IMG/VR virus record: IMGVR_UViG_3300000292_000047
Direction: 5' to 3' (one strand)
DNA length: 48,335 nucleotides
Source: a virus
Lineage: Duplodnaviria; Heunggongvirae; Uroviricota; Caudoviricetes
Below, piece by piece: positions 1 through 48,335 of the stretch. The position numbers were made by a program, and so were the translations under genes. Below the pieces are notes generated by a model. The model was not told the origin of the DNA. It searched no databases and saw nothing but the letters and a program-made list of their open reading frames with translations. Within the stretch, counting starts at the first letter, position 1. Each line of letters starts with the position of its first letter.

Positions 1-118
1 ATCAGATTTCTCCGGTTTAACCAGGGCGGGTATCGCTCGGTTTCGGGTATAACCTTAGGAAATTTTTTCCCACCTGTAAAGCGCTTTTTATATAAATCTA
101 TAATTATATAATTCTATG
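1..118. repeat. Copy A of ~105-bp conserved promoter/5'-leader repeat (minus-strand sense); first 54 bp identical to window end
   Basis: Near-identical to 7517-7640 and 16999-17108; contains ccggagaaatctgATG (SD + start) in minus sense and AT-rich tatataaatctataattatata block. Confidence 0.8.
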
Positions 119-701
119 CCACTTGCCAGAGAGCATCATGCAACTGGATACCTCCATTGCACTGGTTGCCCCAGCCATGCCAACCATCAGGTAAATCACC
201 GCGAGCAAACAGCTCAATACGAGGAACATCACCTAACAGCCTTACCAGCTTGTCACGAACCACATCAGGCTTCCGAGAATGCTCCAGACGAGGCGATGTA
301 AACGACTGAATGATCCCCGCATCAAGGCGGGTCGGCAATTTGCCTTTTACCGCAAACAAGCAATCTTCACTGTTTGCACGAGTCATATGCCCCATCCCCA
401 TCACCAGCTTATCTGGTTGTCGGCTACCACATTTGTTCCATGTGAAGCCCTTCATGGTCATAAGCCTGAATCCCCATGCTTTCACCACCAGCAACGCTTC
501 TTCTGGCTGAGTCGGAACCCACCACATGGCCAACAAACACGATTCAGGATTAGCAAGCTGCCAGACAGGAATACGAGCAATATCCTCAGCTTTCATCGTT
601 GGATACTTAAAACCAGCTCCACGATTCCCATCCTTACACTTATCTTTGTATTCCCAGGGGGGATCTGCATAAATCAGATTAAACAATGCAATTGCCTCCA
701 T
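114..701 (-). CDS. MT-A70 family DNA N6-adenine methyltransferase
   Basis: 195 aa; N-terminal DPPW motif (LIYADPPWEY); ATG at 699-701 checked, GGAGG upstream. Confidence 0.7.
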   Translation of the reverse strand: MEAIALFNLIYADPPWEYKDKCKDGNRGAGFKYPTMKAEDIARIPVWQLANPESCLLAMWWVPTQPEEALLVVKAWGFRLMTMKGFTWNKCGSRQPDKLVMGMGHMTRANSEDCLFAVKGKLPTRLDAGIIQSFTSPRLEHSRKPDVVRDKLVRLLGDVPRIELFARGDLPDGWHGWGNQCNGGIQLHDALWQVA

Positions 702-1008
702 GTTAGTTGTGCCTCCGGCGCTTATCTCCGGCAGTCATAACGCTGACCAGCTCTACAGCAGACACAACGAAAAGGGCACTAACCAGACTGATTAATGCCC
801 TTGCCTGTTGTGTGCCGGATATCGCCCGACAACGCTGTTTTGGTAACACGGCTACAGTTCCGTGCCGCTCCAGCTTTTACCCCTTTGCGGATAACAGGCC
901 CTGCCTGTAACTTAGCCCCACGTTCGCCCGAAATGCGCACCAGGCACGCATAAAGATGAGCACGAAGAAGTAACTCCACCGCGCTTATCTTTATGTGTGA
1001 GGGTGAAT

Positions 1009-1084
1009 TGGTGGCCCCTACCGGATTTGAACCGATGACCGTGCGATTATGAGTCGCCTGCTCTAACCACTAAGCTAAGGGGCC
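1009..1084 (-). tRNA. tRNA with CAT anticodon (Met or Ile2), CCA encoded
   Basis: Minus-strand reading GGCCCCT..CTCATAA..GGTTCAAATCC..AGGGGCCACCA; 7-bp acceptor stem, T-arm ATCGG/CCGGT, anticodon loop CTCATAA. Confidence 0.8.
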
Positions 1085-1092
1085 ATATTTGA

Positions 1093-1168
1093 TTTGTTTG
1101 TCTGGTGTGGCGCCGCGCACGAAAATCCCAGCCAATAAATTCAGGATTTTTGGGCGCGGCGGCATATC
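1093..1168. other. Long near-perfect inverted repeat / extended hairpin next to the tRNA
   Basis: tgtttgtctg...gcgccgcgc...aaaatcc // ggatttt...gcgcggcgg...cagacaaaca; three nested stem segments. Confidence 0.6.
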
Positions 1169-1253
1169 AGACAAACATGGTTGATGCGTGCGCCCATGAG
1201 AAAAGCGCATAGAATGTTGTAACTATATATTTATATAATTATAGAAATATATA

Positions 1254-1463
1254 TTACTTTCGGCAGTTGATTTCCCATGCCCTGTTATGAGCCAGAATAT
1301 CTTTCTTTGTCTGGCGGTCCATAACATCGATGTCGTGATCAGTCAGGTAGATGGGCTTTACCCAATCACAGGCGGTATCAACCACCACCGGGACGCTTCC
1401 ACGACTCCCGCAGCTCGCGATCAACATCGTCATCAGCCATATGGTTAACACTCTGCTGTACAT
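1254..1463 (-). CDS. Rz1-like outer-membrane spanin lipoprotein (overlaps Rz-like gene)
   Basis: 69 aa; signal sequence with lipobox LIAS-C; overlaps 3' end of upstream ORF in another frame; last gene of lysis cassette. Confidence 0.5.
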   Translation of the reverse strand: MYSRVLTIWLMTMLIASCGSRGSVPVVVDTACDWVKPIYLTDHDIDVMDRQTKKDILAHNRAWEINCRK

Positions 1464-6371: not shown

Positions 6372-6416
6372 TGTCGAGGCGTCCTTATACATTTATATAA
6401 ATATATAATTCTATAT

Positions 6417-6438
6417 ACGGCGGGAGACATCCCGCCGT
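6417..6438 (-). terminator. Hairpin downstream of 6449-7516 gene (candidate terminator)
   Basis: acggcggga-gaca-tcccgccgt, 9-bp stem, followed on minus strand by AT-rich tract. Confidence 0.45.
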
Positions 6439-6448
6439 AGGCTTACTG

Positions 6449-7516
6449 TCAGGCTTTCAATAGCGATTCTTTCAGATATCGGGCATCAGCCAGGGCGTTT
6501 GGCGTAATCTTGCGAACCCATGCATTACGGGTTGGACTCCACTTAAAGGCGCGTGATTTAAGCAGCGAACGAATGTTTGCCTCTGGTTTGCCAGGGAAAT
6601 AAAACAGGATGCGGTTATCCTCTGGATCTATCTCCATAGAAAAGCCGTCGTATTCTTCGCGCTGTGCTCCTGTTACAGACTTGACCGATTCAAGCTCCTT
6701 AATACGGCTCTGTAGTCGTTTGATTTCGGCGTTATTGTTGCTCAGTGCGTATGAAGGGAATCCGATGCGCCCACAGAAATCTCCGGCCAGTAACTCTTTG
6801 GCTTCGCTTTCTGTAAACCTGAGATCGATTAATGCAGAAAGCTGCTGTATTTGGTCTTTTTTGTATTTGCGAATGGCCTTATTTGCGGCCTTCATTTTGA
6901 CGTGTGACTTCATGCAGCCTTGCAGCTTACGAAGCAACTTAAATAGCGCATCAGGATCATCAGACGAAATTCCATTACGACCAACACCTGCGGCTTTGCT
7001 CTCGTAGTGTGATGCTTTACTTTCGCATTCAACAAACGCTTTTCTGAATAACGCATCAGCTTTAGACAAACGGCGGCGATGGCCTTTCGCGCTATAATGG
7101 TCAACTAAAATCGGCTGGCCTAACGGGATCACATCCAACAGGTCATGCGCTCGCTTATGCGCTACCGCACCTTCTTTTCTGGCTTTTTCTGCACGAGCAA
7201 TATATCGGGCAAGACGCGCGTTCTGGCGTTCCTGATAGGTGTTTACGTAATCATCTCCGCGCTGCTGCTGTTCAAGCCATGCTTTGCGCAGATCTTCTGT
7301 TACGTCCACCAGCTCCGCAGGGATACAACCAGTTTGGGCTTCATAAGAGTAACCATCCTCATAGATACGCCCATCGTCTTCAACAAAGAAAAAGGTTTCG
7401 TGCTCATCGCTTTTGACCATACGACCATTAACATGGCGTAATAGGTAGCCAGTATCAGTGCTTAACAGGCTGTTAGGGTTGTTGATCCAGTCAGAAATAA
7501 TTACTTGTTTATTCAT
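6449..7516 (-). CDS. Conserved hypothetical protein driven by leader copy B (possibly DUF3560-like)
   Basis: 355 aa from ATG 7514-7516 (MNKQVIISDW) immediately after leader SD ccggagaaatctg; family assignment from memory only. Confidence 0.55.
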   Translation of the reverse strand: MNKQVIISDWINNPNSLLSTDTGYLLRHVNGRMVKSDEHETFFFVEDDGRIYEDGYSYEAQTGCIPAELVDVTEDLRKAWLEQQQRGDDYVNTYQERQNARLARYIARAEKARKEGAVAHKRAHDLLDVIPLGQPILVDHYSAKGHRRRLSKADALFRKAFVECESKASHYESKAAGVGRNGISSDDPDALFKLLRKLQGCMKSHVKMKAANKAIRKYKKDQIQQLSALIDLRFTESEAKELLAGDFCGRIGFPSYALSNNNAEIKRLQSRIKELESVKSVTGAQREEYDGFSMEIDPEDNRILFYFPGKPEANIRSLLKSRAFKWSPTRNAWVRKITPNALADARYLKESLLKA

Positions 7517-7640
7517 CAGATTTCTCCGGTTTAACCAGGGCGGGTATCGCTCGGTTTCGGGTATAACCATAGGAAATTTTTTCCCACCTGTAAAGCACTT
7601 TTTATATAAATCTATAATTATATATTTATAGATTTTCGAT
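7517..7640. repeat. Copy B of ~105-bp promoter/5'-leader repeat
   Basis: Near-identical to 1-118 and 16999-17108. Confidence 0.85.
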
Positions 7641-11333: not shown

Positions 11334-11360
11334 CTGAAAGCGGGCTAACGCCCGCTTACA

Positions 11361-11460
11361 TGATTATAGATTTATATAATTATATAAAACGCTTTTCATC
11401 CGCCAAAAAGTTGGTTATGCTTACCTCGTTCTATAAATATAGATTTATAGAATTATATAA
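11361..11460. promoter_or_regulatory. AT-rich repeat block upstream of parA (candidate centromere/operator)
   Basis: ttatagatttatataattatataa and ctataaatatagatttatagaattatataa; same motif as in leader repeats. Confidence 0.55.
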
Positions 11461-11483: not shown

Positions 11484-12137
11484 ATGACTATCTCTGTAGG
11501 TATTTTCAACGGAAAAGGCGGCGTAACCAAATCAACAATTGCCCGTGCTTTAGCAGTTGCTTATGCAAAGGCCGGCTGGAATGTATGCCTGATCGATATG
11601 GATGTGCTTAACGGAACGGTAACGCGTTGGGTACAACGCAGAATGGCCAACAATATCGAACCTGCAATCGCGGCGCAGCCGTGCGGCACGCCATCACAAG
11701 TCCAGAAAATCATCGAATCAGAAGTATACGACCTGGTTATCGTCGATGGCGGTGCCTACGCATCTGAATCAGTACCGAAGCTCTCTGAATTTCTGGATAT
11801 GGTTATTTTGCCAACCAGATTCTCTACCGATGACCTAGAAACCACCGTTAACACAGCTCACGGCATCGTTAAAAAGGGTGTGCCAATCAAGAAAATTTGC
11901 ATGGTGTTCTCAGGCGCGGCTGAAAACGAAGCCGACTACATTGAAGCCCAAGAGTACCTAGCTAATACGCCATACTTTGTTGTCGATAAGTACATTCCCC
12001 ACAAGCCAGCTCTGAGCAAAGCTCAGGATAAGGGCTTAAGCCTCATTGAATGCTCATACGTTGCGCCACGCAAAAAGGCAGACGACGTTATTCAGGGGAT
12101 TATCAACCAGCTTGAGGCTCTGACTACTGCCGCGTAA
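11484..12137 (+). CDS. parA: ParA/ParF-type partition ATPase (alternative ATG at 11469)
   Basis: Deviant Walker A GKGGVTKST; MinD/ParA fold; GGAG SD before ATG 11484. Confidence 0.8.
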   Translation: MTISVGIFNGKGGVTKSTIARALAVAYAKAGWNVCLIDMDVLNGTVTRWVQRRMANNIEPAIAAQPCGTPSQVQKIIESEVYDLVIVDGGAYASESVPKLSEFLDMVILPTRFSTDDLETTVNTAHGIVKKGVPIKKICMVFSGAAENEADYIEAQEYLANTPYFVVDKYIPHKPALSKAQDKGLSLIECSYVAPRKKADDVIQGIINQLEALTTAA

Positions 12138-12168
12138 TATATAATTATAGTTTTATAGATTTATATAA
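12136..12168. promoter_or_regulatory. AT-rich repeat block between parA and parG-like gene
   Basis: atataattatagttttatagatttatata. Confidence 0.5.
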
Positions 12169-12650: not shown

Positions 12651-12674
12651 TAAAAAAGGCCCCCGAAGGGGCCT
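12651..12674. terminator. Hairpin terminator, usable on minus strand (bidirectional candidate)
   Basis: aggcccc-cgaa-ggggcct perfect stem; A-run on plus gives U-run on minus. Confidence 0.6.
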
Positions 12675-12679
12675 AATCG

Positions 12680-12802
12680 CTACTTGCTGCTAATGTTTAT
12701 CGTCACATTCAGAGCGTTATCAGTAATCTTCCAACCCTCCCCATGTGGCGTAAACAAAGCCCCAGTAACAACGATAAAAATACACATACAGTATTTTTTC
12801 AT
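12680..12802 (-). CDS. Small hydrophobic peptide (40 aa), candidate type I toxin-like or exported peptide
   Basis: MKKYCMCIFIVVTGALFTPHGEGWKITDNALNVTINISSK; ATG inside track ORF 12680-12862; terminator immediately downstream. Confidence 0.3.
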   Translation of the reverse strand: MKKYCMCIFIVVTGALFTPHGEGWKITDNALNVTINISSK

Positions 12803-13200
12803 TGTATGGCCCTTACAGGCCGTTTCACGGCATCCCCACCGACGAAAACAACGCGAGAGCAAGCACGGCTGCTTGTGCTTGCATGTACGGCAACGGAGAA
12901 TCCTCCCCTAAAGTCGGTGCCCGGGTGCGAATCGGCGGGAAGGTCCACAGGTATTTTACGATTATTTTAAGATTAGTAATAGGAAAGAAATTAAACGAAA
13001 AAACTCGTTTATTTTCACAAAATCAGTAACCTACCCACAATCTGTGAGTTTGCAGGCACAACAAGAATCACAATTTTTTGAAGCATAATAGTGGACTATT
13101 ATTACCTTTTGGGTAAAATTAACTTGCTGCTTGTGCTTGCGTGGTTGTTTATACAACGACGTTATGCTGAAAGGACCGCGAATCCGATCAGCACGAAAGA

Positions 13201-13227
13201 ACCGTCCTCAATAGGGCGGTTTTTTTG
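13201..13227 (+). terminator. Intrinsic terminator (plus)
   Basis: accgtcc-tcaata-gggcggt then T7. Confidence 0.6.
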
Positions 13228-13309
13228 TTTCTGCCTACCAATAAACCCACGCTATGTGGTTGTCTCTGTTAAAATCCCGCCGTATTGACATGAATGCGCC
13301 ATTGGTGGA

Positions 13310-13392
13310 CACTTTCCGAGCCGTAGCAAAATCTACGGTCGGGATTGGAACCCCGTAGACACAATGGCGCATACCGCGTTAGCGGTTTTTTT
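13310..13392 (+). ncRNA. Candidate small structured RNA ending at intrinsic terminator, upstream of antirepressor operon
   Basis: TTGACA at 13285-13290; hairpins ccgtag/ctacgg; terminator accgc-gtta-gcggt + T7 (13373-13392); no ORF. Confidence 0.3.
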
Positions 13393-13558
13393 ATGCGTAA
13401 AGCACTGCTACACCCAAATTATGGTGGGGCGTGCGGGGGAGTCGTAAGACTCGCCGGTTCGTCATTGTGTCCGGTAGTTCCAACCCTGCACGTCTCACCA
13501 CCCAATGATTGGAACCTGACGGTGGTGAGTATCCTTAACCTTTAAGGGAATCATCACA

Positions 13559-15660: not shown

Positions 15661-15719
15661 TCTTTCTGGCGCTTACATTACACCACCATAAAACGATCCG
15701 TAAAGGATCATTTGATCCC

Positions 15720-16610: not shown

Positions 16611-16991
16611 TTACTTAACGAGGAATAAAAATGGTTTATCGTTCGGCGGTGTAATCGGGGCTGGCTCGCTTTTGCTCATGCGATCAGTGTACCAGGCCAA
16701 CTCCTTGTCAAAGTAAGCCTGATTAAAATAGGCCATGAATGTGGTTTCAAATCCATAACGACCGCTAATACGCAGCATCTGATTGCCGTTCTCTGTTTCC
16801 AGATATACCTGGGCACGTTCCTGATTCTCCTTCAGCCAGGTTAAAGCCTCATCGCACGAGGACAAACGATACTCATCATCGTAGCCGTCATCGATGCGGC
16901 TTGAAGAAGAACGGCAAATCACGCCAACAGAACCAGCCAGGATAGTTTGAATTTTAAGGAAAGCGTTTTTGCGGATTTTAATCATGCTCAT
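16611..16991 (-). CDS. Hypothetical protein driven by leader copy C
   Basis: 126 aa; ATG 16989-16991 directly after leader. Confidence 0.55.
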   Translation of the reverse strand: MSMIKIRKNAFLKIQTILAGSVGVICRSSSSRIDDGYDDEYRLSSCDEALTWLKENQERAQVYLETENGNQMLRISGRYGFETTFMAYFNQAYFDKELAWYTDRMSKSEPAPITPPNDKPFLFLVK

Positions 16992-16998
16992 CGGGTTA

Positions 16999-17108
16999 TC
17001 TCCGGTTTAACCAGGGCGAGTATCGCTCGGTTTCGGGCATAACCTTAGGAAATTTTTTCCCACCTGTAAAGCACTTTTTATATAAATCTATAATTATATA
17101 ATTCTATG
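16999..17108. repeat. Copy C of ~105-bp promoter/5'-leader repeat
   Basis: 3 substitutions relative to copy A; SD-proximal end diverged. Confidence 0.85.
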
Positions 17109-17112
17109 ATCA

Positions 17113-17856: not shown

Positions 17857-18045
17857 ATTTCAAGAAAAACGGGGCTATTTAACATAATGGACGTTATCGG
17901 CACCACCGGATCACCGTTCATTGTCGGATCTAAAAAATCCGCTCAAAAGATCATGTTTTCCTGGGCGTTTTCCACCGTTTTTTATGTTGCTTATTTGTTA
18001 ATGAAATCTCGTTTTCAGTTTCGCCTCATTTTCGACGCGAAAGCC

Positions 18046-19263: not shown

Positions 19264-20112
19264 TTAATGTTGGAGTGATTTCCAGGTCTTTCTTAACCTG
19301 TTATAACGCTGCTCAACGAGGGATCGTAAATATGCAAGGTCAGCACCAGGATACATGCCATCAGCAAATTCCTGACTAACCTCTCTGGTGATTTGATGAC
19401 GAAGTTCGGCCTCTCCCTTTTCCCGAACAAGACGCGCAGCTCTCTCCGCTGCTTTCTGTTTTGCCTTTATCTCTCTGGCCGTCTTCCTCTGACGCCATAC
19501 ATTCTCCATCTGCTCCTGAATAACAATACGCTTATAATCAGCCTCCGTTATCGCTTTTTTAAGCCGTTCGCTATTCTTCGCATTGAAGTAATTAAGTTTC
19601 TGGCTAACCGCACGTCTCCATGCTTGTTCAGTAATACCAACGGTTTCCAGCAGTTGATCACGAATCTCTATTTTCGCTGGCCAATACTGTTTATTCACCC
19701 GATCCCAGCGACGTTCATAATCAATAAAACCTAACGCTTTCAGTTGCGACAACGCCCTTGTACAGCGCGTTATAGACTTGTTCCCAGCTTCGGATACGGT
19801 AGACAGGCCGCAAAAATCAGCCAACGCCTCAGCACTAGCCAGAACCCGCTTAGAAATGATGTTTACATGGTGCAAAATCGCAGCGATCACAGCATTAATC
19901 GCCCGACGACGATGCTCGTTTATCCGGCGCTTCCGCTCTGACGGTTGATTAACGTAGAACGCAACCTCACACGTAAGATCACGCCCATTAATGCGCTGTA
20001 AAGCATCAGATAACACCAGCGGCAGCTTGTGCGTATGGTGCTTTGGAGGCTGGAACTCCGGCGACAAATTACAAACGTAAGCTGAACGTAGAGACGGCAT
20101 TGGTCTATCCAT
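19264..20112 (-). CDS. repA: IncFII-type (RepFIIA-like) replication initiator RepA; in-frame upstream ATG at 20244 possible
   Basis: RRRAINAVI and GLSTVSEAGNKSITRCTRALSQLKALGFIDYE align by eye with R100 RepA1 (RRRAIDALL, GLATESAAGKLSITRATRALTFLSELGLITYQ); ATG 20110-20112. Confidence 0.7.
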   Translation of the reverse strand: MDRPMPSLRSAYVCNLSPEFQPPKHHTHKLPLVLSDALQRINGRDLTCEVAFYVNQPSERKRRINEHRRRAINAVIAAILHHVNIISKRVLASAEALADFCGLSTVSEAGNKSITRCTRALSQLKALGFIDYERRWDRVNKQYWPAKIEIRDQLLETVGITEQAWRRAVSQKLNYFNAKNSERLKKAITEADYKRIVIQEQMENVWRQRKTAREIKAKQKAAERAARLVREKGEAELRHQITREVSQEFADGMYPGADLAYLRSLVEQRYNRLRKTWKSLQH

Positions 20113-20156
20113 ATGTTCGCTCTTGCGTCCACGGAAAACCAACGTATAATGGGAGT

Positions 20157-20237
20157 TGTCGAGGCGCCCATGGATTGTTGTTGTTGGTTTTCCGTGGATG
20201 TCGCAAGAAGCCCGCAGATTTATCTGCGGGCTTTTTG
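20157..20237 (+). ncRNA. CopA-like antisense RNA countertranscript to repA leader
   Basis: TTGCGT-N16-TATAAT at 20123-20150; strong terminator gcccgcaga-ttta-tctgcgggc + T5 at 20210-20236. Confidence 0.55.
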
Positions 20238-20710
20238 TTTCCATATCTGGTCACTTTCCAACCAGACACCCACAATCATAACCACGTTACGTGGTTTTAA
20301 GAGAACTCTACCACAACACTTTCGGTCATGCACGAAGTCTCTCACTGATCGAACGATAATCCACCAGTAAAAGGATCTAAATTGGATCTCGTTTTGCGAG
20401 CATCATACTACTGGCCTAACTCCAGTCAATGATTCCCAGCCAGAAACCTGCGGTAAACTCATCGTTCAGCAATATGCTGTCCGGCTTCAAAGATAAGGTG
20501 ACATCATCCCTTAACAGCGCGGCCAGTTCAGTTAAAGGGCTGTTCTGATTTAATGCTGGCCACTCATACCTGGTAATAAGTGGTCAGTCTTAACACTCAC
20601 CATTTGATTGCACCCGTGTTGACGATTTGTTACTGGATATCAGACACGCTGGATAGCCAGTAGAAACATACCATTAAAATTATTACAATAATTGGTCACA
20701 TGATTATCTT

Positions 20711-41979: not shown

Positions 41980-42531
41980 TTATTCTTCCTGCTTAATAAA
42001 TCGGGATTCCTGGAGCGCCTGAAGCGCAAAATTAATCTCGTCTTCAATAATGCGCTCGATCTCCCTGGCTGTTTTGCCTTCACAACGGGGAGCTGCTCTT
42101 GGAGCAATACTAAATAAGCGGCTACGCAATTCATTAGCTGCCAGAAATGCATCATCCCTGACCGCATCTTTAGCGATGAGAGAGCCTTCCTTTTCTTCAA
42201 ATTCAAGGCGTTTCAGCTTTGCCTGATAAATTTTTTCTGCGGTCTTAGCCTTGTTGAATTGCACCGCAACACCGGAAGTACCACCAGCTAATCCGGCATC
42301 ATCAGCGGGTAACTCTGGTTGTTCCGAAGATATCCCATGCCCTCTTTTTCCATTTTCAGCAGATACCTCACGACCAACCTGTCGGCTCGCTTCATAAGCC
42401 GCACTGGCTTTATCAAAATCCAGCTTGCCGCTTTTCAGCACTGGAATGCGACCGGAACGACAGAGCTTCGTAACCATTGCCGGAGAAATACCTTTCCGGC
42501 GGGCAAACTCTGACTTACTGACGATGGCCAT
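41980..42531 (-). CDS. Terminase small subunit (HTH)
   Basis: Track start TTG; ATG at 42529-42531; N-terminal HTH SKSEFARRKGISPAMVTKL. Confidence 0.55.
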   Translation of the reverse strand: MAIVSKSEFARRKGISPAMVTKLCRSGRIPVLKSGKLDFDKASAAYEASRQVGREVSAENGKRGHGISSEQPELPADDAGLAGGTSGVAVQFNKAKTAEKIYQAKLKRLEFEEKEGSLIAKDAVRDDAFLAANELRSRLFSIAPRAAPRCEGKTAREIERIIEDEINFALQALQESRFIKQEE

Positions 42532-43121
42532 TACTTGCAACCATTAGCAAGATACTGAACAAATCCCTCATGCGTTTCATGCGCGTCGTGGTACTGACGA
42601 TAAACATCCAGCAACAATGCAATTTCCATATCCGTCGCGGGAATACGTTCTTTATCAATAGCCAGGTACTTAATTTGAACAACAGGGGAAGAATTATCGT
42701 CTTCTTCCTGCGGCTGTTCATCGCTTAACATTTCGTCAAGCTCTGCATCATTAAACCCAAGCAGATCAATATCAAAATCATCATCCATTAACTCTTTGAC
42801 TTCTTCGGCCAGAAGCTGCATATCCCAGCCAGCATTTAAGGCCAGCTTGTTATCTGCAATCCTGTAAGCCTTCTTCTGTTTTTCAGAAAGGTTACTCAAC
42901 CGAATCGCCGGAACTTTATCCATTTCCAGAATTTCGGCTGCTGCAAGCCGACCATGCCCCGCAATCAGTTCATTCTTTTCATCGATCAGCACAGGATTAG
43001 TGAAACCGAACTCACGGATACTGTTCACCAACTGTTCAACTTGCTCATCTGAATGAGTCCGTGAATTTTTGGCATATCTGAGCAGCTTACCGACTGGTAA
43101 ATATTCGATTTTTAGAGTCAT
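42531..43121 (-). CDS. ParB-like nuclease domain protein
   Basis: 196 aa; ParB N-terminal fold motifs (LIAGHGRLAAA); paralog of 45788-46411. Confidence 0.7.
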   Translation of the reverse strand: MTLKIEYLPVGKLLRYAKNSRTHSDEQVEQLVNSIREFGFTNPVLIDEKNELIAGHGRLAAAEILEMDKVPAIRLSNLSEKQKKAYRIADNKLALNAGWDMQLLAEEVKELMDDDFDIDLLGFNDAELDEMLSDEQPQEEDDNSSPVVQIKYLAIDKERIPATDMEIALLLDVYRQYHDAHETHEGFVQYLANGCK

Positions 43122-43678
43122 TTTTTAACCACCATAACACAACAGGTTAAAGAAAACTGTTTAACTTATTGATACTAAAAGAGAAAAATGACGATCTTTT
43201 TACTCATAAAAAATCACACAAACCAGCATAATTATCTGATTTTATTAAGTTTTTATAAGTAAAAAGGATCTTGCGATGGTGTTTTGGTTAAAAGATTGGA
43301 TGTATTTGCATGATTTATAACGATTTTTATCAGAACAACATCACATTGGTTAAAGATCTGCGCGTATCTTGATGATCTAAAAGAAAATTTTCTACTTTCT
43401 TTTTACCAGCACAAATACAGCAAAAAATCACGTTTTCCCGATATTTTTCAATGAGATGAGTAAATTTCTTTTACCGCAACTTTTAACCTAACTTTTTTCA
43501 CGTTTAGCTAGCCGAACATCGGGGTTCGAATGACCCGCATCCAACGCTTTTGGCCAGAAGGACCCAATTCTGCCGGACGATGAAACGATGCTCGTGCTCA
43601 CCCACAGACAGCCAGCGAGCGACGCTACAGAACACAGTGAATACACCCTGCATAACAACACCATCAACCACACGATGA

Positions 43679-44414: not shown

Positions 44415-45788
44415 CTACTTAATCAACGGCCGGAAAGCCGCCAGCACATCATCAGATCGTCCGATTGTTGAACCACCAGGCAACGGCAACTCAAACTCAA
44501 AACGAACAGCTTTCTCCAGACTCTCCCAGCGAAGAGAATCATCGTTAATAACGTGCAAATACCAGCTCTTACAGTTGAATATTGACCGCTTAATCCTGAA
44601 ACCATGTACACGACACAACTGCTTCACTTCATCATCAGAGTGAAACTTCTGGTAAAACCAGTGCCCCTTCCGGTACAACGCGGTAAAACCGTTATGATCA
44701 ATAAAATAAAGCCGGCTTTTGGAACTCGCCGCTTGTGTTTGCTTCAGGACTGTTTCCAGCTCTCCACGGCTACGACCAGAAAAGAATATTGACCCACCAG
44801 CTTTACACAGGCCTTTCAGAACCGTCAGAACAGACCATTCAGCCTCGACACTATCGACCGAGTTCAAAACGCTATCGCAAATCACGTAGTCGTAACGCCC
44901 TCGCGTTTTTAAGTCGTCCACCAGCGTATCAATCATCCGGTTTGTTGCGGTCCTATCCAGAGTGTTTCCAGCGCCCTTACGGCGGAAAAGCTCGAGATCA
45001 TGCAGGTTATATCCCTTTGCCCTGAGCATTCGCGCGTAGTCTCCCTGCCCCGAACCAAAATCAATTCCTCTTGGCGTCTTGGCAATGATCGGGAGGATCA
45101 ACGACTCATACAGGTTTGATTTCAGGCTGCCACCATTACGCAACCGCATAAGCTGCGCATACGTCTGGATGTATGTTGTTTTCTCCAGATGAGAATACTC
45201 AAATACACCATAAGTTTTATTCAGATAACTTTGGTATTTTTCCTTCTCAACATCAGGGATCACAAACACCGTTAGCGGTGTGCGCGTCATTTTCGCTGCT
45301 AATGCATACTGAGCACAGTGAATAACCTCACCAGACTGAGTAGCAACACAACCACCCCACGGACCATACTTGATAACCAGTTCCGCTATGTTCTTTCGAA
45401 CATATGCCATTTTCGCGCGCATATTGCCTGAGATCTGGCTTGCCGATACCTGAACAAAACCATGCTTATCTTCCAGACCGGACACCCTGCAACGCTCATC
45501 TCCGCTATCAAAATCCGTTCCGTTATGCAGTTGGTTAAACCGTACTTCGTCGTATACCGTCGTTTCACAGGGCAACACATACACCGCAGCACGCGTTATT
45601 CCCAACTTACGTAGCGCCTTCGTCCTTTGGTGTCCCGCCACCAGCAAATCGCCGCGCACTATCAATGGCTTCACAAGCCCCAGCTCCCTGACGCTTTCCG
45701 CCAGCCTCGCAAGATCATCCTCACCGATAAAACGCGGGTTATATTCCGCGCCGCGTAGGTGCGTTATGTCGTAATTCAGGTGAAGCAT
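44415..45788 (-). CDS. ParB-like domain fused to class I SAM-dependent methyltransferase
   Basis: N-terminal ParB-like region (LVAGHQRTKAL); C-terminal GIDFGSGQGDYA motif I; ATG 45786-45788 with GGAGG SD, TGATG coupling to upstream gene. Confidence 0.7.
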   Translation of the reverse strand: MLHLNYDITHLRGAEYNPRFIGEDDLARLAESVRELGLVKPLIVRGDLLVAGHQRTKALRKLGITRAAVYVLPCETTVYDEVRFNQLHNGTDFDSGDERCRVSGLEDKHGFVQVSASQISGNMRAKMAYVRKNIAELVIKYGPWGGCVATQSGEVIHCAQYALAAKMTRTPLTVFVIPDVEKEKYQSYLNKTYGVFEYSHLEKTTYIQTYAQLMRLRNGGSLKSNLYESLILPIIAKTPRGIDFGSGQGDYARMLRAKGYNLHDLELFRRKGAGNTLDRTATNRMIDTLVDDLKTRGRYDYVICDSVLNSVDSVEAEWSVLTVLKGLCKAGGSIFFSGRSRGELETVLKQTQAASSKSRLYFIDHNGFTALYRKGHWFYQKFHSDDEVKQLCRVHGFRIKRSIFNCKSWYLHVINDDSLRWESLEKAVRFEFELPLPGGSTIGRSDDVLAAFRPLIK

Positions 45789-46411
45789 CAGCACACCTCC
45801 CCAGCCAGCAATGCGGATACAAATCCGATATAGCTGCCATTATCATCAACATAACGAGACACCGCGCAGTCAAAACGATCCGCTTCCTCATCCGTTGCCG
45901 GGATTTTATGACCTCCAAATGACAGGTACTGAACTTTTACGCCTGATTTGGCCTCATCCTTCTCAAATGGGATATCCATACCCTCTGTGTCATCGTAGAC
46001 CGCCGCACTCAATAAGTTATCCAGTTCGCGCTGAGTAAAACCAATTGAGTCCAGAGCAAAATCATCGGCCGCAAGATCTGCAAGCTCCGCGCTTAACAAC
46101 TCTTCATCCCAACCAGCATTCAGCGGAATACGGTTGTCGGCCAGACGATATGCCTTCTTCTGATTCTCCGTTAGCCCAGCCAGAACAATGCAGGGAACAT
46201 CATCCATCCCCAACTGAGTGGCCGCAGCAATTCGACCATGACCAGCAATTACAACGTTGTTCTCGTCTATCAGGATCGGATTAGTCCATCCGTACTCCTG
46301 TATGCTGGCAACAATCTGATCTACCTGCTCCACGGAGTGTGTGCGAGCGTTCTTTTCATAACCAATCAACACAGAAAGTGGTAAAGAAACCACATTAAGA
46401 TGTTTTGTCAT
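45788..46411 (-). CDS. ParB-like nuclease domain protein
   Basis: 207 aa; VIAGHGRIAAA; shares C-terminal region with 42531-43121. Confidence 0.7.
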   Translation of the reverse strand: MTKHLNVVSLPLSVLIGYEKNARTHSVEQVDQIVASIQEYGWTNPILIDENNVVIAGHGRIAAATQLGMDDVPCIVLAGLTENQKKAYRLADNRIPLNAGWDEELLSAELADLAADDFALDSIGFTQRELDNLLSAAVYDDTEGMDIPFEKDEAKSGVKVQYLSFGGHKIPATDEEADRFDCAVSRYVDDNGSYIGFVSALLAGEVC

Positions 46412-47816: not shown

Positions 47817-48014
47817 TTAATGCTCGCGTCGTCCGGCGACAACTTCGGATTTGTATTTCAGGTCGCCCAGCAAGAATTGCAGTTTAAGCATCTTTGCCGC
47901 CGTGTAGTTCCCTGATTCCACAACCTCTTTCATGAGGTCATAAACGGCCGCTACATCATCAGCCAGGAACTCTTTGCGTTGCTGCTCAGTCGCACGTTTG
48001 AAGGAAATACGCAT
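47817..48014 (-). CDS. Hypothetical protein
   Basis: 65 aa from ATG 48012-48014; TGATG coupling to upstream gene. Confidence 0.4.
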   Translation of the reverse strand: MRISFKRATEQQRKEFLADDVAAVYDLMKEVVESGNYTAAKMLKLQFLLGDLKYKSEVVAGRREH

Positions 48015-48283
48015 CACTCATCATCTCCTGCCGCACATACAACCTCACAAAAAAAATCAGCAGAATGTTTCTCCTTGAACGAATGACGCTCAAAACCGCA
48101 CTCAATATCAGGCGCAAAAACATCCACCACATACGGTCTTTCAGAATGTTTGTTTTCCCAACGATAAACCGTAGTGACGTTGAAATGTTTTAACGCTTCA
48201 CGGAACTCAACGCTGCCCGTCAGGTTTTTTGAGGTCAGGTATTGCAGGAGGTTTTTTACTACTTCACGGTCTTGTACTTTCAT
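48014..48283 (-). CDS. Hypothetical protein, first gene behind leader copy A/D
   Basis: 89 aa; ATG 48281-48283 directly after ccggagaaatctg. Confidence 0.5.
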   Translation of the reverse strand: MKVQDREVVKNLLQYLTSKNLTGSVEFREALKHFNVTTVYRWENKHSERPYVVDVFAPDIECGFERHSFKEKHSADFFCEVVCAAGDDE

Positions 48284-48335
48284 CAGATTTCTCCGGTTTA
48301 ACCAGGGCGGGTATCGCTCGGTTTCGGGTATAACC
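48282..48335. repeat. Copy D of leader repeat, identical to window positions 1-54
   Basis: 54/54 identity with window start. Confidence 0.9.

Follow-up and report, generated by a model that had tools for sequence, protein, structure and literature searches.

Orphan methyltransferases that methylate GATC in phage DNA are carried by several phages, among them the Dam enzymes of T4, P1 and VT2. These belong to other families (alpha-class D12 or phage 'Dam') than the enzyme described here, and the likeness to it is one of proposed role only. METTL3 (mRNA m6A) and the ciliate MTA1/AMT1 (DNA 6mA) have their fold and catalytic motifs in common with it. However, they are obligate heteromers (METTL3 with METTL14, and MTA1 with MTA9, p1 and p2) and carry extra RNA- or DNA-binding modules, whereas our enzyme has neither RNA-/DNA-binding domains nor a co-encoded paralogue. 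Beta-class methyltransferases generally act as dimers, and the class includes M.EcoGII, a non-specific adenine methyltransferase from a prophage (PMC7544214). M.EcoGII is a beta-class prophage orphan like the enzyme described here, but it is a fusion of ParB_N and N6_N4 rather than an MT-A70 protein.

The closest described enzymes are M.EcoGV and M.EcoPA8orf6770P (gp5 of Stx2 phages, P13374 and phiPA8 among them), which share with ours the subfamily, the size class, the DPPW motif and the state of a phage-borne orphan. M.EcoGV is entered as a GATC 'Dam homolog' in a REBASE-based list (PMC6602927, Table 3), and its overproduction resulted in GATC methylation in vivo according to the account in PMC10810198, which cites Fang 2012 for it. 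On dam- DNA, purified M.EcoPA8orf6770P alone was hardly more active than background. It binds PNB-2, the product of an overlapping upstream gene, at a ratio of 1:1, and the resulting complex showed a preference for 16S rRNA (PMC10810198). Short-tailed variants of M.EcoPA8orf6770P exist without PNB-2, the presence of which is linked to the last ~27 aa of the methyltransferase tail, and the homologues in Stx phages have weak expression and, on their own, almost no activity (PMC10810198).

The window, that is, the whole stretch of 48,335 nucleotides analysed here, begins and ends with the same sequence. This exact 54-nt overlap (1-54 and 48282-48335) shows that the assembly is circular, at 48,281 bp; leader copy A and its first gene are cut apart by the window ends. 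It is 98% identical to the Yersinia phages vB_YpM_39/41/44 and ~99% identical to plasmids of 47-50 kb in 68 complete E. coli genomes, including that of ATCC 25922; a literature search found no methylome paper on ATCC 25922 or the 48-kb plasmid. PGAP annotated RepA, ParA, a RelE/ParE toxin, an XRE repressor and a lysis cassette in a 48,282-bp twin, together with terminase, portal, capsid and a sheath, tube and baseplate tail set. The ryfA, isrK and C4 group (12652-13505) is a P1-like immunity RNA set beside the partition region. Since plasmid and phage genes occur together with these RNAs, the element is a phage-plasmid. The pSLy3 group and vB_YpM_HQ103 were rejected as relatives, both being unrelated elements. 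The features of the window are listed in Table 1.

Table 1. Coordinates of features discussed in the text
Feature	Position	Strand	Remarks
Leader copy A	1..85	minus	Promoter-like TTTACA 75-80, 17-nt spacer, TAAGGT 52-57, 5' UTR, GGAG
AT-rich array, four 8-bp repeats CATAGAAT TATATAAT TATAGATT TATATAAA	86..119	minus	Holds MT-A70 stop codon
MT-A70 family methyltransferase ORF	114..701	minus	195 aa from ATG 701; TAG stop 114-116
Catalytic motif IV DPPW (GAT CCC CCC TGG)	654-665	minus	Residues 13-16, aligned to Tetrahymena MTA1 DPPW
Conserved non-coding stretch, 205 nt	702..906	minus	Directly upstream of MT-A70; contains GGAGG Shine-Dalgarno sequences
tRNA, anticodon CAT	1009..1084	minus	ARAGORN; 307 nt upstream of MT-A70 gene, same strand
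Conserved long hairpin	1096..1176	minus	MFE -41.9 kcal/mol, z = -3.4; between AT-rich array and tRNA
Upstream AT-rich array of 8-bp repeats, then GTTACA	1214..1262	minus	Rz1-like lysis ORF ends inside
ryfA	12652-12948	minus	Rfam, 141.8 bits, above gathering score
isrK	13320-13392	plus	Rfam, above gathering score
C4 antisense RNA	13417-13505	plus	Rfam, above gathering score
Stand-alone ParB_N protein	42531..43121	minus	PADLOC PDLC03229 E=3.6e-40; phrog_498
ParB_N + Methyltransf_23 fusion, 459 aa	44415..45794	minus	Leader-A operon, upstream of terminase genes
Stand-alone ParB_N protein	45788..46411	minus	PADLOC PDLC03229 E=3e-37; phrog_498
89-aa gene, first after leader A	48014..48283	minus	Crosses circular junction

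A sequence-only reading of this DNA had proposed that ORF 114..701 encodes an MT-A70 protein with a DPPW motif, and the DPPW at 654-665 and a full-length Pfam match bore this out. The match to Pfam MT-A70 (PF05063; E=3.4e-23, 82.9 bits, cut-off 23.9) places residues 7-180 on profile positions 1-172 of 172, and no other Pfam match was found in the protein. The protein was also matched by phrog_359, 'DNA methyltransferase' (E=1.2e-102), and by MTase_II of PADLOC, a REBASE-derived Type II methyltransferase model (E=1.8e-68). These matches confirm, at the level of sequence, that the ORF is a genuine gene that is conserved and encodes an MT-A70 family adenine methyltransferase. The identity of the gene is already known: the identical protein WP_000387271.1 is named 'MT-A70 family methyltransferase' by RefSeq/PGAP, dozens of E. 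coli plasmids carry this standard annotation, and earlier work on the family exists. The finding as first stated is therefore ordinary. In the GenBank records of the Yersinia phages the product is called hypothetical, and its start is placed at TTG 686 (190 aa), whereas PGAP uses ATG 701 (195 aa). Because the ATG of the Salmonella homologue aligns with 686, and the upstream ATGGAGG is out of frame there, the true start may be 686, in which case GGAGG would serve as its Shine-Dalgarno sequence.

By sequence, the solved structures closest to the protein were Tetrahymena MTA1 (E=4.9e-13) and human METTL3 (E=1.8e-6), with identities of 22-25%. A Foldseek search with an AF2 model of the protein (pLDDT 77, pTM 0.80) gave the catalytic domains of METTL3 and MTA1 as the top matches (E=2e-13, TM 0.65-0.70). 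The protein is the catalytic core alone, without a target-recognition domain, because these alignments span 184-193 of the 195 columns and leave no extra domain. SRKP (residues 142-145), ELFAR (163-167) and WGNQ (177-180) were found in alignment with MTA1, and the motifs follow the order of the beta class, with DPPW near the N-terminus and the SAM-binding elements C-terminal to it. All 55 columns defined as invariant on a family alignment of 35 sequences, including those of DPPW, SxKP, ELFAR and WGN, were kept in the window protein. Motifs and alignments together identify the product as a minimal (190-195 aa) beta-class SAM-dependent adenine-N6 methyltransferase of predicted activity.

The orthologue on the Salmonella phage-plasmid showed 76% amino acid identity (72% nucleotide identity in the CDS), and the dN/dS between the two genes was 0.14, with synonymous sites near saturation. 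The locus was present in 61 PLSDB plasmids, compared with 62 enterobacterial plasmids carrying the terminase gene, and the order of lysis genes, gap, MT-A70, small genes, ParB_N and ParB-methyltransferase was kept in the Salmonella relatives. Judged from these comparisons, the MT-A70 gene is a core gene of the lineage and is under purifying selection. No restriction endonuclease gene was detected adjoining the MT-A70 gene, whose neighbours are the tRNA, the lysis cassette and small late-operon genes, and by gene content the methyltransferase is an orphan.

A search for the family gave 6,457 matches at E<=1e-5, mainly in Enterobacterales prophages, and homologues were found in 515 phage records, more than 100 of them Stx2 phages. 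The O104:H4 Stx-phage methyltransferase P13374 gp37, a close M.EcoGV-type relative, was 73% identical over residues 7-181, and phiV10 p33 was 78% identical overall. The identities were distributed unevenly along the protein. Over residues 7-87 the protein shared 91% identity with its counterpart on the Salmonella phage-plasmid and 75% with that of phiV10, whereas over residues 88-150 it shared 57% with the former and 90% with the latter (79% with P13374 gp37); in residues 151-181 the values were 81% and 68%, respectively. By these identities the gene is a mosaic, with a central third of the phiV10/Stx-phage type and both ends of the Salmonella phage-plasmid type. With an offset applied to the loop numbering of METTL3, we take residues 88-150 to correspond approximately to the interface loop and gate loop 2, which face the substrate. 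The least confident stretch of the AF2 model (residues 98-108) also lies within this swapped segment. If the loops in 88-150 set the specificity, the window enzyme would be expected to behave like the phiV10/M.EcoGV type.

The genes surrounding the methyltransferase differ from those of the described relatives. The Stx enzyme has 208 aa with a 31-residue tail after WGNQC, is translationally coupled to PNB-2 (4-nt overlap) and lies beside int/xis, whereas the window enzyme has a 14-residue tail and no PNB-2, is preceded by ~300 nt of conserved non-coding sequence and a tRNA, and lies between lysis and late genes. Both the partner gene and the long C-terminal tail of the PNB-2 holoenzyme are thus absent. 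The phiV10 p33/epsilon15-type 'putative adenine methylase' is similar in sequence, but has an overlapping PerC-like gene upstream. P13374 PNB-2 and the PerC-family gene of phiV10 (PF06069, E=5e-7) each overlap the methyltransferase start, and PerC is fused to the methyltransferase in some relatives (P0009). When PNB-2 (P13374 ORF08) and the PerC-like phiV10 p34 were compared with the window by tblastn, no match was better than E=0.5, and a Pfam search of the two small ORFs upstream of the MT-A70 gene gave nothing. Among 45 homologous loci from different species, most had an upstream ORF overlapping the methyltransferase start, as is usual in packed phage operons. These ORFs were mutually unrelated, the largest cluster being PerC-like (7 loci) and PNB-2 a singleton. 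The module that holds the methyltransferase gene also varied: some copies adjoin int, others follow a lambda-P-like gene in the nin region, and that of the window separates the lysis genes from the late genes. On this evidence the MT-A70 gene behaves as a one-gene mobile module that has no partner common to the whole family.

The sequence-only reading had also placed a second, distinct methyltransferase on the element, a fusion with ParB, and this too stood up: the protein of 44415..45794 contains ParB_N (E=3.2e-5) and Methyltransf_23 (E=7.9e-8) by Pfam, and no similarity to the MT-A70 protein was detectable by BLASTP (E=1.9). It corresponds to phrog_5475, whose function is unknown in PHROG, and its sequence matches in the PDB were only ParB/Spo0J proteins. 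The fusion is flanked in the late operon by two stand-alone ParB_N proteins without a methyltransferase domain, both of which match the first ~150 of the 436 positions of the ParB-methyltransferase model PDLC03229. It is these two proteins, and not the MT-A70 protein, that resemble the N-terminus of M.EcoGII in the window.

The leader-A operon consists of the 89-aa gene, small genes, ParB_N, ParB_N-Methyltransf_23, a minor-tail-like gene, ParB_N and terminase. The 116-nt repeat at its head (1-116) occurs again at 7515-7630 and 16991-17106. In minus-strand order it comprises the AT-rich array of four 8-bp repeats in tandem, then TTTACA separated by a 17-nt spacer from TA(A/T)GGT, and finally a conserved 5' UTR, GGAG and ATG. 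As had been proposed, the MT-A70 gene ends inside the AT-rich part of leader copy A; its TAG falls within the array's first octamer, as it also does in Salmonella, and at the edge of the 116-nt repeat. On the other hand, the accompanying proposal that the gene is convergent with the leader-driven operon or insulated from it was not borne out. Convergent transcription was rejected on strand, since both are on the minus strand, head to tail, and insulation was unsupported, as a sequence scan for terminator-like sites found none from the stop to the leader.

The MT-A70 gene is the last gene of a small unit consisting of an AT-rich array, a hairpin, the tRNA(CAT), the conserved non-coding leader and the methyltransferase. 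The gene is flanked by the lysis cassette on one side and the leader-A late/packaging operon on the other, all on the same strand. The array at 1214..1262 is the putative promoter or operator of the tRNA/MT-A70 unit. A promoter scan of the strand of the MT-A70 gene found nothing, and the transcription signals assigned near the gene are consensus-level predictions. Arrays of 3-4 tandem 8-bp repeats (TATAGATT/TATATAAT-like) were seen at 86-119, 1214-1262, 6383-6424, 7600-7635, 11354-11387, 11427-11460, 12136-12162 and 17076-17111, before operons on both strands, parA included. An 8-bp period recalls the arrays bound by ribbon-helix-helix partition or repressor proteins, and the arrays of this element may serve a global regulator as operators in addition to acting as promoters.

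The tRNA next to the MT-A70 gene, which the sequence-only reading had noted, was found there by ARAGORN. It was called Met by ARAGORN and tRNA-Ile by PGAP in near-identical plasmids. We take it to resemble E. coli ileX (tRNA-Ile2, which reads AUA), and it is probably a tRNA-Ile2. ATA accounts for 25% of the Ile codons of the element (15.3 per 1000 codons), and none is present in the MT-A70 gene. A conserved pairing of tRNA and methyltransferase was rejected because the Salmonella relatives keep the methyltransferase without the tRNA. In the hairpin upstream of the tRNA (1096-1176), inspection of the alignment by eye showed paired changes that distinguish the E. coli type from the Salmonella type, and no T-run follows the hairpin.

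The non-coding 702-906, which adjoins the MT-A70 gene on its upstream side, was more conserved than the gene itself. Outside a hairpin tip, the E. coli and Salmonella types were 94% identical in 806-906 and 702-771, compared with 72% in the CDS, and the synonymous sites of the adjacent N-terminal codons (residues 7-87) differed at 56%. Folding is strong in the 5' part of the stretch (z = -4.06), whereas the conserved 3' 70 nt show no notable structure (z = -0.6). A long hairpin at about 772-802, extended by CACAACAG/CUUUUCGUUGUG, remains paired in Salmonella despite 4 double changes and 36 nt inserted at its tip; this comparison is between the only two sequence types present in the collections searched. 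Rfam at gathering thresholds gave no family for 702-906. Below threshold, a hairpin resembling rydB (704-759, minus; 26.8 bits, cut-off 50) was found, with 19 identical bases, UGCCGGAGAUAAGCGCCGG, and its 3' arm overlaps the GGAGG before ATG 701. An upstream ORF at 779..979 (66 aa) was rejected as a gene on the grounds that it lacked 3-base periodicity, that its substitutions relative to Salmonella were mostly non-synonymous and that 94% of its nucleotides were conserved. The ten IMG/VR loci with the element were all of the same two sequence types, a pattern scan of genome contigs gave no distant copies, and a distant blastn search against phages retrieved only three Yersinia phages. On these comparisons the stretch is the most unusual feature nearby, and its role may be that of an sRNA or of a leader with regulatory function.

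As for the substrate, the reading that we prefer, with a probability of about 0.5, is that the MT-A70 enzyme acts on the DNA of the element itself and methylates adenine there, GATC being the most probable site. A promoter at the upstream AT-rich array would drive the gene, either together with the tRNA or following it, possibly with read-through from this unit into the late operon, and the enzyme would act as a homodimer, as is general for the beta class. Methylation of adenine, most probably in GATC, would keep the rapidly replicating phage-plasmid DNA fully methylated, and this in turn would protect it against restriction of unmethylated GATC, serve Dam-dependent functions of the replicon, or both. 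GATC is named as the probable target because REBASE assigns it to the 73%-identical M.EcoGV, and stand-alone action is favoured because the upstream neighbours of the 45 homologues are heterogeneous. The GATC reading is weakened because purified M.EcoPA8orf6770P, of the same subfamily, was near background on dam- DNA and because the GATC result for M.EcoGV came from overproduction; in addition, such an enzyme would be partly redundant because the hosts (E. coli, Yersinia and Salmonella) already carry Dam. An N6-adenine motif in DNA as the function is accordingly plausible, not secure.

GATC, with 134 sites observed and 216 expected (ratio 0.62), ranked second among the element's 4-bp palindromes by depletion. 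This depletion would be a poor fit to reliable self-protection at GATC, and such counts are uninformative for deciding the specificity. Despite the depletion, GATC clusters were seen at 15695-15714, 17909-17949, 20347-20385 and 43193-43374, one of them just upstream of repA (19264..20244, minus) and another in the gap of 557 nt that precedes the ParB gene on the terminase side. The clusters are possible methylation-sensitive origin or packaging sites.

Alternatively, the enzyme could be a 16S rRNA adenine methyltransferase like the M.EcoPA8orf6770P-PNB-2 complex, which would alter host translation and hence induction or lytic growth. Its 73% identity to the Stx-phage enzyme is consistent with such a role, but the rRNA preference of that enzyme needed PNB-2, and no PNB-2 or PerC homologue was found in the window by tblastn; nor did the small upstream ORFs have a Pfam match, and partner genes are not conserved across the family. 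The window enzyme has 14 rather than 31 residues after WGNQC, in which it resembles the short-tailed variants that occur without PNB-2 (PMC10810198). The nearest solved structures include an mRNA enzyme, METTL3, beside the DNA enzyme MTA1, and the neighbourhood of the gene is rich in RNA (tRNA and structured leader). However, the modified rRNA base was never identified in PMC10810198, and we regard an rRNA target as unlikely here.

It is similarly doubtful that the enzyme methylates adenine in DNA at some other very short target, or non-specifically, giving the progeny DNA broad cover against restriction. GATC is the only specificity reported for a close relative (PMC6602927, PMC10810198), which argues against this, whereas a protein that consists of the catalytic core only, with no recognition domain, argues for it. 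Although M.EcoGII demonstrates that prophage beta-class enzymes can be non-specific (PMC7544214), it comes from a different family (ParB_N and N6_N4, not MT-A70). The gene adjoins the late operon, which fits action before packaging, and the mosaic central segment would be expected if specificity loops had been swapped.

We consider it rather improbable that an RNA context has replaced the PNB-2/PerC partner, so that the 205-nt element regulates the enzyme or is its substrate or guide, and RNA, not DNA, is acted on. If this were true, the targets would be rRNA, the co-transcribed tRNA-Ile2 or the leader. Finally, that the element carries the gene as a remnant, decaying or without function, as the weak expression and near inactivity of the Stx-phage homologues alone (PMC10810198) might suggest, is very hard to reconcile with the low dN/dS at near-saturated synonymous sites, the retention of all invariant residues and the presence of the locus in essentially every member of the lineage.

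The window enzyme, for which methylation of GATC in the element's DNA is the preferred reading, is a clean test case, being naturally partner-less and short-tailed in a subfamily whose substrate is disputed (GATC DNA or 16S rRNA). Its carrier, a small phage-plasmid, is widespread and infects Yersinia pestis as well, and the conserved stretch at 702-906 could reveal how stand-alone MT-A70 enzymes are regulated.
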